A stretch of DNA of 64,000 bases from Candidatus Magasanikiibacteriota bacterium (GCA_003510435.1 DOMK01000001.1:26604-90603), one strand, 5' to 3'; positions 32,763 to 37,520 are shown, numbered from the stretch's first letter. Numbers and translations: made by a program. Notes: a model not told the origin generated them from the sequence alone.

Positions 32763-32868
32763 ATCTCGAGCGAAGCGAGAGATCCCTTTTCATTGGGTTT
32801 AACTTCGCTATATTTTAAGTATTGTTTAATGTTTTGGAAAGGGATTCCTCACCCTTCGGGATTCGGAA
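32763..32868. repeat. family-B palindromic element (~105 bp; CTCGAGCGAAGCGAGAGATCCCTTTT...AAAGGGATTCCTCACCCTTCGGGATTCGGA) between atpD and atpC
   Basis: Near-identical copy at 37411-37520; diverged copy at 45721-45835. Confidence 0.65.
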
Positions 32869-34248
32869 TTAGACAACATCTTCAATTCCACCTTTCATGT
32901 AAAAAGCTTGTTCTGGTTTGTCATCATGTTTACCATCAAGAATTTCACCAAAAGCTTTGACAGTGTCAACCAATTTTACATACTTACCTGGTGTACCGGT
33001 AAAGACTTCAGCCACGTGAAATGGTTGTGACAAGAATTTTTGTAATTTTCTGGCACGAGATACAGTCAATTTATCATCATCAGACAATTCTTCCATACCA
33101 AGGATAGCAATAATATCTTGTAAGTCTTTATATTTTTGTAAGACTCTCTGGACTTCACGAGCCACGCGATAATGTTTTTGTCCCACGATGTTTGGATCCA
33201 AAATTGTAGAAGAAGAATCTAATGGATCAACCGCTGGATAAATACCAAGTTCTGATAATGAACGATTCAATACAACCGTAGAATCCAAGTGAGCAAAAGT
33301 GGTCGCTGGAGCTGGATCAGTTAGGTCGTCAGCTGGCACATAGACTGCTTGCACAGAAGTAATAGAACCTTTGGCAGTAGAAGTAATACGTTCTTGCAAT
33401 TGCCCCATTTCTGTGGCCAAAGTTGGTTGATAACCTACAGCTGATGGCATACGACCAAGAAGGGCAGATACTTCGGAACCAGCTTGAGTAAAACGGAAAA
33501 TGTTGTCAATAAAAAGTAGTAAATCTTTACCCTCTTCATCACGGAAATATTCGGCCATAGCGAGAGCAGTCAAAGCCACACGAGCCCGAGCCCCTGGTGG
33601 TTCATTCATTTGACCAAAAACTAGTGCAGTCTTGGCTAACACACCAGATTCTTCCATTTCGCGATATAGATCATTACCTTCACGAGTCCGTTCACCTACA
33701 CCAGCAAACATAGAAAATCCACCGTGTTCCTGAGCAATGTTTCTGATTAATTCTTGAATAACTACAGTCTTACCTACACCAGCACCACCAAACAAACCAA
33801 CTTTTCCACCTTTTAAAAATGGACAAAACAAATCAATAACCTTGATACCAGTTTCTAAAACTTCTGATTTGGTTGATTGATCTTTAAAACTTGGAGCTGG
33901 TCTATGAATTGGATAATGTTTTTTGGCTTTTTCATCTCCCTTACCATCGATTGGTTTACCAATAACATCAAACATACGACCAAGAGTTTCTGGTCCAACT
34001 GGAACAGAAATTGGTGCGCCAGTATCTACCACTTCAGCTCCGCGAGCCAGACCATCGGTAGTACTCATGGCAATGGTACGAACCATATTGCCACCCAGAT
34101 GCTGTTGGACTTCTAATACCAAGGTTTCACCATTAGGCATTGCGACTTCCAAAGCAGAATATAATTCTGGTAATTTATCTTTAAAGTGTACATCAGCTAC
34201 TACGCCGATAATTTGACTGATTGTTCCCTTATTTTTTTGTTCTGACAT
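32869..34248 (-). CDS. atpD: F-type ATP synthase beta subunit
   Basis: P-loop GGAGVGKTV and DELSDDD-like [12 protein letters not shown]; full-length alignment-quality conservation. Confidence 0.95.
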
Positions 34249-34264
34249 AGAGTATTATTTTAAT

Positions 34265-34360
34265 TTGTGATTATTGTTTGTTAATCATTTTTTTCACATA
34301 TCACATAGCACGTATCACATATCAATTTATTTGTTGTGTGGTATGTGTTGTGTGGTACGT
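34265..34360. repeat. ORF-less inverted repeat of the CACATATCACATA / TGTGTGGTATGTG type (empty IVS-like stem) between atpG and atpD
   Basis: tcacatatcacatagcacgtatcacatatca ... tgtgtggtatgtgttgtgtggtacgtga; arms are reverse-complementary. Confidence 0.5.
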
Positions 34361-34362
34361 GA

Positions 34363-35331
34363 TTATTCAAGTGCCGCCGCACCACCAGCAATTTCGGCAA
34401 TTTCTTGGGTAATGCCAGCTTGGCGAGCTTTGTTATAAGTTAAATTTAATTCATCAATCATATCTTCGGCTGAATCAGAAGCATTTCTCATGGCCATCAT
34501 CCGAGCACTATGTTCACTGGCCGATGATTCCAAAGCGGCTTGAAATATTTGCGTCTCAACTAGTCTTGGTAAAATTGTTTTTAAAACATCAGTCGTGTTT
34601 GGTTCAAAAATGTATGTGTCAGTAATCAAAGTTTGATTTTGTTTTTGTTCGTCAGTCTTTAAGTCTTCATTGTCTGTGCCTAGATTATTCATCATTTTTT
34701 CCAAATCAAGTTCAGAAATTGGCAAAACTTGTCTCAACTTTGCAGTTTGGACAATAGCTGATTTGTAATCAGTATAAGCAACAACGACTTTGTCATATTT
34801 TTTAGCTTCGTATTCCCCGACTATCATTTTGGCAATTGGTAAAATATCATTTAGATTTGGGGTATCAGAGATATCACTATAAGATGCAATTAAATTATAA
34901 CCATTTTTCTTGGCAAAATCTGCACCTTTTTTTCCAATACCAACCACATCAATTTCAATATTCTCGCCAGCCTCAATATTATCTTTTCCTACCATGTGTT
35001 GACTAATATTTTTTGGATCTTTCAGTTGTTCAGCCGTCTTTCTAATAATATTAGCATTAAAACTTCCACATAAACCACGATTGGATGTTACCAAAACTAC
35101 AAGTAATTTTTTTACTGGCCGAATTTCTAACAAAGGCAAATTGACTTCTTGCACTTTTGACAAGTTCACCAAAAGATCCCAAGCCATTTTGGCATAGGTA
35201 CGAGTATTAACAGCTGCTTCAGTTGCTTTTCTCATTTTGGCAGCCGCGACCATTTCCATGGCTTTAGTAATCTTCTTAGTATTACCCACGGATTTGATAC
35301 GTCGTTTAATTGCTTTGGTGTTTACGGCCAT
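34363..35331 (-). CDS. atpG: F-type ATP synthase gamma subunit
   Basis: N-terminal IKRRIKSVGNTKKITKAMEMVAAAKMRKA and C-terminal LTYNKARQAGITQEIAEI. Confidence 0.85.
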   Translation of the reverse strand: MAVNTKAIKRRIKSVGNTKKITKAMEMVAAAKMRKATEAAVNTRTYAKMAWDLLVNLSKVQEVNLPLLEIRPVKKLLVVLVTSNRGLCGSFNANIIRKTAEQLKDPKNISQHMVGKDNIEAGENIEIDVVGIGKKGADFAKKNGYNLIASYSDISDTPNLNDILPIAKMIVGEYEAKKYDKVVVAYTDYKSAIVQTAKLRQVLPISELDLEKMMNNLGTDNEDLKTDEQKQNQTLITDTYIFEPNTTDVLKTILPRLVETQIFQAALESSASEHSARMMAMRNASDSAEDMIDELNLTYNKARQAGITQEIAEIAGGAAALE

Positions 35332-35433
35332 AAAAGGCTTACGAAGCCGACAAGGCTGACTAGGCTCGCAAGGCTTTTGTAAGCCTTGTTAGCTTTGTGA
35401 ACATTGTAAGCTCTAAGTATATTAGTTTATTAA

Positions 35434-36960
35434 TTATTTACTAAATTCTTGACAGGCTGATTTAAGTTCAGCTTCTACAGTCTCGTCCCAATCACCTTTA
35501 GCTAACTTGTTTAACAAAGCTCGTTTTGATTTATTCATAAATTCAATCATTTTCTTTTCTGCGTCGGCAATTTCTTTGACAGCAAATTTATCAAAATAAC
35601 CATTGGATACAGCATAGATAACCGCGATTTGTTCCTCTACAGCCATTGGACTATATTGTGGTTGTTTTAATAATTCTGTCATGCGTTGACCCAGATCAAT
35701 TTGTTTTTTTGTATCAGCATCTAAGTCACTAGCAAATTGAGCAAAAGCTTCTAATTCACGGAATTGGGCCATGGCCAGTTTAATTTTACCAGCCACTTTT
35801 TTCATGGCTTTTAATTGGGCTGCTCCACCGACACGAGATACAGATATACCAATATTTAAAGCCGGTCTAATACCTTTGTAAAATAAATCGGTTTCTAGGA
35901 AAATTTGTCCATCAGTAATAGAAATTACATTGGTTGGAATATATGCAGTTACGTCCCCTGCTTGAGTTTCTATAATTGGTAGAGCCGTAATAGAACCACC
36001 ACCATTTTCTTTGCTTAGTTTGCAAGCGCGTTCCAAAAGACGTGAATGTAAATAAAATACATCGCCAGGATAGGCTTCACGTCCTGGTGGACGGCGGAGT
36101 AACAAAGAAATTTCACGATAAGCCCAAGCTTGTTTGGTCAAATCATCATAAACAACTAAAACATCTTCACCTTTATCAGCAAAATATTCAGCCATGGCTA
36201 CGCCAGCATATGGAGCAATAAATGACATAGAGGCAGGATCAGAAGCACCAGCTACGACCACAGTCGTATACTCCATTGCCCCAGTTTCTTTTAACTTGGC
36301 GACGATACGAGCAACTTTGGATTCTTTTTGACCAACCGCTACATATACGCATTTCATGTTTTGACCTTTTTGGTTGATAATAGTGTCAATCGCAATGGCA
36401 GTCTTACCAGTTTGTCTGTCGCCGATAATAAGTTCACGTTGACCACGGCCAATTGGAATCATTGCATCAATGGCTTTGATACCAGTCTGCACTGGTTGAT
36501 GAACTGGGTGACGTTTCATAACACCAGGAGCAATTTTTTCTACTGGATAAAATTCTTTAGTATTGATTTCACCCTTGCCATCAATCTCTTGACCCAGAGC
36601 ATTCACGACTCTACCAACCATTTGTTCACCAACAGGCACAGACAAAATTCTACCAGTACGTTTAACTGTGTCTCCTTCTTTAATGGCTTTATAATCACCC
36701 AAAATCATGGCACCAACAGTCTCTTCTTCCAAGTTTAGAGCCACACCAAAAACCCCACCAGTAAATTCCAACATCTCCTGGTATTGACATTTGGTTAGAC
36801 CAGACATGCGAGCAATACCATCACCGACTTGAATAACAGTACCAACTTCTTCAGTTTGGACTGTCTTTTCAAAGTCAGCAATGTGCTTTTTTAATTCTTC
36901 AACGATTGCGTTTGTGGACATATATTTTATATTATGATTATTTATAATATTTGTTATCAC
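35434..36960 (-). CDS. atpA: F-type ATP synthase alpha subunit
   Basis: P-loop [13 protein letters not shown] and the conserved alpha body. Confidence 0.95.
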
Positions 36961-37008
36961 CTATCATTTATTTTACAGAATTATTAATGATAAGTGATAA
37001 ATGATAAC

Positions 37009-37401
37009 CTAATTTAGTGAATTTTTAAGTAATTTTAGTTGTGTTTTTAAACTTCCATCCAAAATTTTATCTTCAGTTTTGACTGACACACCACCAAGTA
37101 AATTTGTATCAATAGTTTCAATCGCTTCTACTTGATTACCAAAAATTGATTTAATTTTTTCTAAAGTATTTTTATCTAATTTTCTAGCTGACTTAACTTC
37201 TATCTCTATTACCCCAGCCTGTTTTTTGGCGTATTTTTCAAATTCTTTAATAATATTGTCAGATTGTTTTAATTTTTGATTAGCAACTAAAATAGTGACA
37301 AACTTTTTTAAAGCATTGTTTAATTTTTCGCCTTTAAGTTCTTTTGTGCTATCATACAAGGCTTCGGCGTATTGTTTGTTGCTAATTTTTTTCTTTGACA
37401 T
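37009..37401 (-). CDS. atpH: F-type ATP synthase delta (OSCP) subunit
   Basis: Helical N-domain and C-terminal LLGGVSVKTEDKILDGSLKTQL. Start moved to MSKKKIS because upstream codons are repeat-derived. Confidence 0.7.
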   Translation of the reverse strand: MSKKKISNKQYAEALYDSTKELKGEKLNNALKKFVTILVANQKLKQSDNIIKEFEKYAKKQAGVIEIEVKSARKLDKNTLEKIKSIFGNQVEAIETIDTNLLGGVSVKTEDKILDGSLKTQLKLLKNSLN

Positions 37402-37410
37402 AATCTCGAG

Positions 37411-37520
37411 CCAAAGCGAGAGATCCCTTTTCATTGGGTTTAACTTCGCTTTATTTTAAATATTGTTTAATGTGTTGGAAAGGGATTCCTCTCCGTCAGC
37501 TGACGGATCGGAATGAACGA
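37411..37520. repeat. family-B palindromic element between atpF and atpH; supplies the last codons of atpF
   Basis: taatctcgagccaaagcgagagatcccttttcattgggtttaacttcgctttattttaaatattgtttaatgtgttggaaagggattcctc... Confidence 0.65.

Follow-up and report, generated by a model that had tools for sequence, protein, structure and literature searches.

The F1Fo ATP synthase operon contained in a 64,000-nt stretch of a Candidatus Magasanikiibacteriota genome (GCA_003510435.1, DOMK01000001.1:26604-90603; this whole stretch is referred to as the window, and all positions are counted from its first letter) carries two near-identical copies, B1 and B2, of a palindromic element named family B. The sequence analysis suggests that the B elements are repetitive extragenic palindromic (REP) dimers of the CGTC type which were inserted at gene junctions of the atp operon, and that B1 and B2 have been recruited to act in cis within the polycistronic atp mRNA. 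A probability of about 0.6 is assigned to this reading. A cis role in the operon mRNA is proposed because there is strong indirect evidence of purifying selection on B1 and B2.

The host is classed as a Candidatus Magasanikbacteria-like member of the candidate phyla radiation (CPR). Its AtpD, AtpF and AtpC found their best matches in Patescibacteria, the closest named ones being Candidatus Magasanikbacteria / Magasanikiibacteriota. The best AtpF match (87%) and the best AtpC match (96%) both came from GCA_049287025.1 (locus L104), which is the nearest genome and is collinear with window positions 47860-31855 at a DNA identity of 80-88%. In a streamlined CPR genome such as this one, roughly 1 Mb in size, junk DNA is expected to have been purged.

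Further relatives included L001 (AtpD 84% identical), L111-L113 (AtpC 81% identical), P0054, a sister of L109, and L114, a sister of L108. For the comparison of B copies, 80 atpD loci (L001 and 79 others) were fetched. The record titles of L001, L004-L007 and L011 read "uncultured Gammaproteobacteria bacterium"; the atp operons in these records are clearly Patescibacteria-like, and the titles are probably taxonomic mislabels.

Detection of the B elements

Three copies of about 117-122 nt were identified, all of them on the gene (minus) strand and placed with a covariance model:

32758-32874, minus strand: B1, at the atpD-atpC junction
37398-37519, minus strand: B2, at the atpF-atpH junction
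45718-45835, minus strand: B3, a diverged copy between nifU (stop codon 45840-45838) and a thioredoxin-like [2Fe-2S] ferredoxin gene

With a profile built from these copies, nhmmer recovered the three at E = 4e-36 to 4e-40 and detected no fourth copy in the 64-kb window. B1 and B2 share 95% identity over an ungapped core of 81 nt and 90% over the aligned element. B3 is more distant (64% identity over the core); its termini are GTCATCCCGA...TCGGAATGA, and an ATG ATT ATG start is found at its 3' end. An earlier note on this DNA had described three related family-B copies, two near-identical ones in the atp operon and a third in the Fe-S operon. The profile search confirmed that the three are homologous, B3 being located at the nifU-ferredoxin junction.

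Fold and anatomy

A 12-copy alignment was assembled from the three window copies, orthologues in L104, L107, L109 and L110, and copies at four unrelated junctions on metagenome contigs, the latter located with a degenerate pattern. RNAalifold returned three helices for these copies rather than one long stem:

B1, minus strand: P1, 32869-32865 with 32848-32844; P2, 32843-32838 with 32789-32784; P3, 32783-32779 with 32767-32763
B2, minus strand: P1, 37514-37510 with 37489-37485; P2, 37484-37479 with 37430-37425; P3, 37424-37420 with 37407-37403

P1, in the 5' arm, pairs ATTCC with GGAAT around a mini-hairpin of variable length, and in B2 it encloses the sub-hairpin CCGTCAGCTGACGG. P2 (CCCTTT...AAAGGG) closes an AT-rich spacer of about 48 nt. 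P3, in the 3' arm, has the form ATCTC-TCGCTTCGCTC-GAGAT. The 5' REP unit consists of a (C/T)GT(T)C tag, the ATTCC stem, the variable apical mini-hairpin and GGAAT, and the 3' REP unit is inverted. Between the two units lies a spacer of about 60 nt with the pairing ends CCCTTT and AAAGGG.

In the three-helix model, 99.5% of the cells of the 12-copy alignment were paired and 7 of the 16 pairs were compensatory, a result that was reached in 0 of 500 shuffles. The first two pairs of both arm stems were A-U and U-A in all 12 rows. A covariance model of the three helices recovered about 36 elements, from AT-rich CPR contigs to contigs of up to 69% GC. Among 71 rows aligned with it, an alignment that is fitted to the model and counts both strands, 98.4% of the cells were paired, 11 of the 16 pairs were compensatory, and each of the A-U and U-A pairs was kept in 68-69 rows. 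Since the three helices are supported by covariation, the element is regarded as two inverted small hairpin units with a structured spacer. These elements, described as palindromic before, are homologous and of a mobile type; they form two REP-type hairpins and a structured spacer, not one long palindrome.

Other structures were considered and rejected. A single long hairpin was no better than shuffles; at two of its positions the bases fail to pair, in 9 and in 11 of the 12 sequences. A helix between AGCGA of the spacer and TCGCT of the P3 loop showed no covariation, both sides being almost invariant, and the pairing is broken in B3. An 11-codon mini-ORF (open reading frame) ending at ATGA is not conserved, its ATG being missing in L095 and in B1 of L104. 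The comparison with Rfam gave no match in the window at gathering thresholds and, at E <= 5, only chance matches to miRNA- or snoRNA-like hairpins. Inspection by eye revealed no convincing consensus for integration host factor (IHF) in the spacer.

Placement and orientation

The elements reach from the stop codon of one gene to the start codon of the next. The atpD stop TAA (32871-32869) overlaps the first base of P1 in B1, and the atpC ATG (32761-32759) is located 1 nt past P3. The end of atpF reads through B2 as CGT TCA TTC CGA TCC GTC AGC TGA (R-S-F-R-S-V-S-stop, with the TGA at 37498-37496). B2 was previously said to supply the last eight codons or so of atpF; the number found was about seven codons plus the stop. 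The atpH ATG (37401-37399) stands at the 3' end of the same element. The start codons of atpC, atpH and the ferredoxin gene thus lie 1 nt past or within the 3' end of an element, a feature absent from the earlier note. Because the 3' end of B2 abuts or contains the downstream start codon, the true atpH start is taken to be 37401 and not 37434, as given by the ORF finder. Both atpH and atpC were found to be without a Shine-Dalgarno sequence.

The placement was examined at seven independent B-family junctions, which are atpD-atpC, atpF-atpH, nifU-ferredoxin and four from further CPR contigs; the genes concerned in the latter include a P-type ATPase, a PEP-utilising enzyme, FolD and a Mur-ligase-like gene. 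In all seven cases the element extends from stop to ATG between co-oriented genes in a uniform sense orientation, for which the chance is about 0.016 (two-sided). The upstream frame stops at the first P1 base or continues for 5-10 codons in the element, the first half of which closes all three frames, and the ATG lies 0-6 nt past GAGAT(T). In the opposite orientation, P3 followed by CCCTTTT scores terminator-like. No terminator-like site was detected in B1 or B2 on the transcribed (minus) strand, such sites being confined to the antisense strand. The orientation bias could be attributed to selection against polar insertions or, alternatively, to a strand-specific insertion mechanism.

Insertion at the atp junctions

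The comparison with relatives indicates that the B copies were inserted, as the earlier note had supposed, and are not ancestral spacers. In L001 the atpF-atpH junction reads TAAtATG and the atpD-atpC spacer measures 11 nt. No B copy was found in any of the 80 atpD loci. L104 carries B1 and B2 at the same two junctions, and atpF-atpH is occupied by B2 or a variant in L107, L109, L108 and L110. Unrelated palindromes occupy atpD-atpC in L111-L113. The atpF-atpH junction is empty in P0054 (13-nt spacer) and holds a PDDEXK_3 ORF with inverted-repeat flanks in L114. Judged by this distribution, only the members of a small clade have B1 and B2 by common descent. Since the relatives hold different elements, ORFs or empty spacers at the same places, the atp junctions are considered recurrent landing sites. 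REP-derived "SFR" tails were detected in 7 of 120 AtpF homologues, which in a neighbour-joining tree fall into at least five clades.

Classical miniature inverted-repeat transposable elements (MITEs) have terminal inverted repeats and a target-site duplication of fixed length. The B family has terminal inverted repeats (GTCATYCCGA / TCGRRATGAC). A flanking TA..TA was observed at B1, L095 and L086 and not at B2, B3, L101 and L102; it may be a target duplication, with this inconsistency between copies. Among the relatives compared, no empty site of sufficiently similar sequence was found.

Whole extra small ORFs were also observed within the atp operons of relatives. They comprise a 23S_rRNA_IVP ORF at atpA-atpG, the PDDEXK_3 ORF at atpF-atpH and unannotated ORFs of 75-221 aa (L112, 1923-2333; L114, 1932-2339; L108, 1475-2062 and 3616-3843; L109, 5442-6107 and 8734-8961; L001, 8540-8986). 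Long inverted repeats surround at least two of them. Small mobile ORFs in general seem to use the junctions between atp genes as landing sites.

Conservation of B1 and B2

The identities of orthologous copies were compared with those at four-fold degenerate sites of the same genomes:

B1, window and L104: element 94.5%; spacer 43/48; 3' arm 30/30; four-fold sites 64% (831 sites; 73% where the base is A/T)
B2, window and L104: element 93.3%; spacer 47/48; 3' arm 29/30; four-fold sites 64% (the same 831 sites)
B2, window and L107: element 91%; spacer 46/48; 3' arm 29/30; four-fold sites 49%
B2, L104 and L107: element 97%; spacer 47/48; 3' arm 30/30; four-fold sites 52%

For the remaining atp spacers, the identity of the window to L104 amounts to 22-59%. 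Even under a neutral identity of 75%, the identities of the B copies would have a probability of 1e-5 to 1e-10, and the rate of B1 and B2 is about as slow as that of first and second codon positions. The diagnostic variants CCAAAAC (B1) and CCAACAC (B2) are common to the copies of different genomes. Because B1- and B2-specific variants are shared across genomes in this way, the copies are regarded as orthologous, with no concerted evolution or homogenisation. The part most conserved across unrelated junctions is the 3' half, AGCGAAGTTAAACCCAA-GAAAAGGGATCTCTCGCT..GCTCGAGATT.

These values bear directly on the possibility that the elements are neutral selfish palindromes, kept since precise excision is rare and since they carry stop and start codons, and similar to each other through recent spread or homogenisation by a master copy. 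The superfamily is mobile and widespread, being present at 23 metagenome loci from AT-rich to 69% GC, the same junction was struck repeatedly by different elements, sister elements lie inside genes, and the B3 spacer is not conserved in L104, all of which would suit selfish DNA. However, the identity of 91-97% in B1 and B2, against 49-64% at four-fold sites, includes the 48-nt spacer (43-47 of 48), and the dependence on stop and start codons constrains only a few bases. Homogenisation, in turn, does not agree with the variants specific to B1 and B2. Purely selfish persistence is thus considered unlikely, at odds of the order of one in five.

Relation to known repeat families

The B elements resemble the CGTC-tagged REP superfamily of Di Nocera, De Gregorio and Rocco (2013, BMC Genomics 14:522, PMC3733652). 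The definition given there comprises an unpaired CGTC (or TGTC/CCTC) tag, a stem which almost always opens with complementary A-T residues, and a CCA-like tail. These REPs are mainly head-to-head dimers with conserved spacers of 20-100 bp, the ends of which may be complementary. They sit between co-directional genes near the upstream stop, which they sometimes supply, and in-frame intragenic copies occur, notably in repair genes. In the four families described, stems measure 8-9 bp and loops 4-5 nt; Neisseria dRS3 (CGTC-1) and the Rickettsia conorii palindromic elements RPE-4 and RPE-6 are assigned to the superfamily, for which no dedicated transposase is reported to be known (PMC3733652).

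With the CGTC REPs so described, the B elements share the (C/T)GTC tag, a stem base of A-T then T-A, the head-to-head dimer, a spacer within the range of 20-100 bp (about 60 nt in every B copy) with complementary ends, and the position at a co-directional junction hard against the upstream stop. Their termini likewise supply stop codons, and sister copies are found in frame in genes, including a UvrD-type helicase. The 5' tags, each followed by the AT of the stem, are CCGTC-AT in B3, TCGTC-AT in L109, TGTC-AT in L102 and L104, CGTTC-AT in B2 and TGTC+TA-AT in B1. The 3' side is AT-GAC(A/G) in B3, L104 and the GC-rich copies, B1 and B2 having an extra T or TA.

Several differences from the published account were also noted. 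The arm stem of B has 5 bp and its apical region, with a variable mini-hairpin, 11-27 nt, in contrast to the 8-9 bp and 4-5 nt reported. A C-rich tail follows the stem in both; in B it reads CCC (GGAAT-CCCTTT), next to the CCA-like form of the article, and is paired with a GGG on the far side of the spacer. Patescibacteria/CPR are outside the five phyla reported there. The 3' end of B also supplies or abuts the downstream start codon, and two orthologous B copies appear to be under purifying selection. Because 5-bp arm stems with large apical regions are unlike those of the four described families, membership of B is proposed at the superfamily level only. The elements are filed as a new family, and not under CGTC-1 to CGTC-4, since the stem and loop dimensions misfit and the comparison was made with the published description of those families. 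Family B would accordingly consist of head-to-head dimers of CGTC-type REP hairpins, REPIN- or RPE-like in organisation, in a phylum new to the superfamily.

REPINs are REP doublets which form hairpins and are mobilised by RAYT transposases (Bertels and Rainey 2011, PMC3116915). Two inverted REP units with a total of about 100 nt, the ability to fold separately or as one hairpin, and the occurrence in within-genome families are common to both. REPINs have a GTAG tag and a RAYT gene, in contrast to the CGTC-type tag of B. No transposase was detected among the ORFs, about 30 in number, of the 64-kb window that were scanned with NCBIfam/Pfam.

In E. coli, REPs and bacterial interspersed mosaic elements (BIMEs) within operons, e.g. 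malE-malF, stabilise upstream mRNA segments, as was demonstrated experimentally. The B elements are similarly co-transcribed intercistronic hairpins directly after a stop codon, which offers a plausible route to differential expression within the operon. Unlike B, the BIMEs usually keep well clear of the start codon that follows and do not supply it, and B is known from sequence alone. The Correia repeat enclosed elements (CREE) of Neisseria have 26-nt terminal inverted repeats and an IHF site, and can carry promoters and processing sites. B elements are comparable in being palindromic, of about 100-150 nt, co-transcribed with their neighbours and possibly accompanied by the TA duplication at B1, L095 and L086; they differ in the lack of sequence similarity and in the inconsistency of that duplication. 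With respect to the Rickettsia palindromic elements (RPEs), the B copies are intergenic and so are not in-frame insertions; the sister dimers in rsmI, a hydrolase and a UvrD-like helicase do behave in an RPE-like manner. A search of the literature on CPR/Patescibacteria for palindromic repeats or MITEs gave nothing relevant, and a search by element sequence strings gave only unrelated primer matches.

Proposed role and alternatives

In the proposed mechanism, the elements would have been inserted into near-zero spacers between co-transcribed genes. Only one orientation would have survived, in which no hairpin is followed by a T-run terminator, the AT-rich spacer closes the upstream frames and the ATG comes 0-6 nt after the 3' hairpin. 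Insertion at junctions in the surviving orientation would explain why the elements now provide the tail and stop of atpF and the starts of atpC and atpH. B1 and B2 would already have been present in the common ancestor of the host genome, L104 and L107. The helices P1, P2 and P3, formed from one junction, would bring the upstream stop beside the downstream start. The termination-reinitiation coupling allowed by ancestral spacers of 1-11 nt would be preserved in this way, and the translation of the Shine-Dalgarno-less atpH and atpC would stay coupled to the upstream gene. With a cut in the AU-rich spacer, the upstream fragment would be capped at its 3' end by P1 and the downstream fragment at its 5' end by P3, which would protect both halves of the mRNA.

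Several observations weigh against this mechanism and against the REP assignment. We infer the RNA-level role of B1 and B2 indirectly, and it may lie in processing, in stability or in the coupling of translation. When copies are folded singly, the minimum-free-energy structures are mutually discordant, and for B1 and B2 the better fold is that of the antisense strand (the strands are about equal for B3), so that thermodynamics singles out no sense RNA. Pairs of the G-U type, by which selection on RNA could be told from selection on DNA, are almost absent from the helices. Two sequences, B3 and L110, contribute the majority of the compensatory events in the 12-sequence set, and the larger 71-row set has the dependence on the model and on both strands mentioned above. 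The B3 orthologue of L104 retains the arms only, with a different spacer; the spacer constraint is thus not general to the B family. The deviating dimensions of the arm stems and apical regions limit the CGTC assignment to the superfamily level.

The earlier note suggested that the repeats adjust subunit stoichiometry through RNA processing or stability. This is plausible in general, and it fits the conserved hairpin after atpE better than the B elements, since delta and epsilon, encoded downstream of B2 and B1, are single-copy subunits.

Alternatively, the elements might act as a mobile internal promoter plus leader, with the sigma-70-like TTTCCA-17 nt-TAAAAT in the spacer and the 3' half from AGCGAAG to ATG as 5' untranslated region. 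This is regarded as improbable. The hexamers occur in both B1 and B2, and in most family members inspection by eye showed similar ones equally far from P2. Between different junctions, conservation is highest in the 3' half of the spacer and in the 3' arm, and the strict sense orientation directly upstream of an ATG would be appropriate for a promoter. Nevertheless, only 9 of 12 positions match, and the regional number of matches (37 vs 27.8 +/- 5.2 in shuffles) is not clearly enriched. The best-conserved spacer motif, ATTAAA, is located between the two hexamers, and there is no obvious need for an extra promoter before the single-copy delta and epsilon genes.

A role at the DNA level is judged very improbable. 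The elements would then be sites for nucleoid proteins or gyrase, like the E. coli BIMEs, or attachment or recombination sites, like Neisseria dRS3. The ATTCC..GGAAT arm stems do resemble dRS3-type REPs, which are assigned to CGTC-1 in PMC3733652, the same junctions were struck repeatedly by different elements, and nothing in the helices speaks for RNA rather than DNA. Such a role explains neither the strict sense orientation nor the stop-to-ATG placement, and no integrated element was seen beside B1 or B2.

The idea that the copies are ancestral spacers, or encode small proteins on the plus-strand ORFs 32727-32960, 37434-37670 and 45651-45869 that are present in the window, is refuted, because more distant relatives are without the elements and the antisense frame, open in five copies (B1 and B3 of the window, B1 and B2 of L104, B2 of L107), is broken in B2 of the window, L095, L086, L101, L102 and L109, and the ORFs moreover overlap conserved atp genes on the opposite strand. 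Other copies do not preserve the frame in which these ORFs cross the element, and the ORFs are thus indeed spurious, as they were called before.

The co-option of B1 and B2 in the atp mRNA is accordingly retained as the preferred reading. A stronger version of it can be put forward only tentatively, with clearly less than even confidence: B1 and B2 may be domesticated REP dimers that constitute an indispensable, sequence-constrained intercistronic RNA module of the F1Fo operon, responsible for coupling across about 110 nt and for processing or stability boundaries.

Other features of the operon and the window

The F1Fo ATP synthase operon is complete and runs on the minus strand in the order atpI-like, atpB, atpE, atpF, atpH, atpA, atpG, atpD, atpC, all genes matching NCBIfam equivalogs:

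32333-32761, minus strand: atpC (epsilon), start codon abutting the 3' end of B1
32869-34248, minus strand: atpD (beta)
34363-35331, minus strand: atpG (gamma)
35434-36921, minus strand: atpA (alpha), the ATG at 36921 agreeing with relatives
37009-37401, minus strand: atpH (delta), start codon abutting the 3' end of B2
37496-38083, minus strand: atpF (b), C-terminal RSFRSVS tail encoded by the element
38222-38443, minus strand: atpE (c)
38608-39417, minus strand: atpB (a)

The GTG at 36960 given for atpA by the ORF finder lies upstream of the ATG matched by relatives. AtpH has only 130 aa and covers only positions 47-178 of 179, the C-terminal part, of the NCBIfam delta-subunit profile NF004402. 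Since the same short form occurs in all relatives examined, it is attributed to the lineage and not to the insertion of B2.

All eight atp spacers fold into a hairpin, with z-scores from -2.5 to -8.2. Those not occupied by B, and the operon end, are the following:

32267-32332, minus strand: operon end, family-D fragment (32279-32332) and terminator-like hairpin with T run (32292-32267)
34249-34362, minus strand: atpG-atpD spacer, ORF-less palindrome with ACAC../..GTGT arms, z = -3.8
35332-35433, minus strand: atpA-atpG spacer, long imperfect ORF-less stem with GCTTACAA/AAGGCT repeats
36922-37008, minus strand: atpH-atpA spacer, GTTATCA..TGATAAC palindrome
38084-38221, minus strand: atpE-atpF spacer, hairpin (38213-38192) directly 3' of atpE, then family-C palindrome (38097-38170)
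38444-38607, minus strand: atpB-atpE spacer, nested palindromes (38514-38612), conserved in L107 and L109
39424-39516, minus strand: atpI-atpB spacer, palindromic TGTCATGCTGAAT..ATTCAGGGTGACA with GTCA/TGAC termini, z = -8.2

A 23S_rRNA_IVP (PF05635) ORF was found at 1021-1389 (plus strand), with ACAC-rich and GTGT-rich inverted arms at 975-1020 and 1395-1445. The atpG-atpD spacer had been called an ORF-less stem of the intervening sequence (IVS) type, which is a fair label because its arms resemble those flanking this ORF. ORF-less palindromes with ACAC/GTGT-type arms occupy other spacers as well. The family of the atpA-atpG stem flanks the IVP ORF in L112 and occupies atpD-atpC in L113. The family-C palindrome and the family-D fragment were both located where previously reported, between atpE and atpF and after atpC, respectively. 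Further family-C copies are found at 42367-42415 and 48839-48917, and the family-D fragment has 67% identity to its reference copy and adjoins the operon terminator.

The hairpin directly 3' of atpE (38213-38192, minus strand) is GC-rich, CCGGGTCAATTTTGATCCGG, and is kept with compensatory changes in L104, L107, L108, L110 and L109. It could serve to stabilise the mRNA of the c subunit, which has a high stoichiometry, or act in attenuation.

Sister REP dimers of the form GTCATYCTGAGCG...CGCTCAGRATGAC, belonging to the same superfamily as B, add 26-40 residues per protein in three genes of the window:

8692-8807: in frame in an alpha/beta hydrolase gene (ORF 8188-9012)
27119-27205: in frame in a UvrD-like helicase-nuclease gene (ORF 24931-27960), between motif II and the VVGDDDQ motif
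44334-44441: in frame in rsmI (ORF 43992-44732, minus strand)

L104 is without the rsmI insert and has 9-10 different residues at its position. A solitary TCAGGATGAC at 55091-55100, 3 nt upstream of the ATG of ORF 53832-55088, may be a remnant of a REP arm or a chance match.

Other repeats in the window include a perfect tandem array of the 9-nt unit TCTGTTTGT in about 11 copies (62464-62568), near the start of ORF 61412-62572. A 244-nt direct repeat with 75% identity lies at 41513-41756, between the TatD and CvpA genes, and at 48069-48312, upstream of nifS. The GC content rises to 44% at 28001-30000, compared with about 32% elsewhere. The only long plus-strand ORF in the central part of the window (28261-29196, 311 aa) lies in this segment and matched no Pfam family.

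Biological meaning

REP-type palindromes have been known for about 40 years, and the use of individual copies by the host is still debated. The B copies are placed at the exact stop/start junctions of an essential, stoichiometrically demanding operon, and orthologous copies have hardly changed across genomes whose synonymous sites are near saturation. The CGTC-type superfamily would be extended to Patescibacteria, including RPE-like in-frame inserts in rsmI, a hydrolase and a UvrD-like helicase. For the annotation of CPR metagenome-assembled genomes, the elements can entail misplaced starts (atpH at 37434 instead of 37401), REP-encoded protein tails and spurious antisense ORFs.

If B1 and B2 are indeed domesticated as an indispensable RNA module, they would clearly exemplify selection at the level of the host acting on single REP copies. 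The conserved 3' half would then be a reusable mobile "start-codon cassette", found at unrelated junctions in the CPR genomes L086, L095, L101 and L102.

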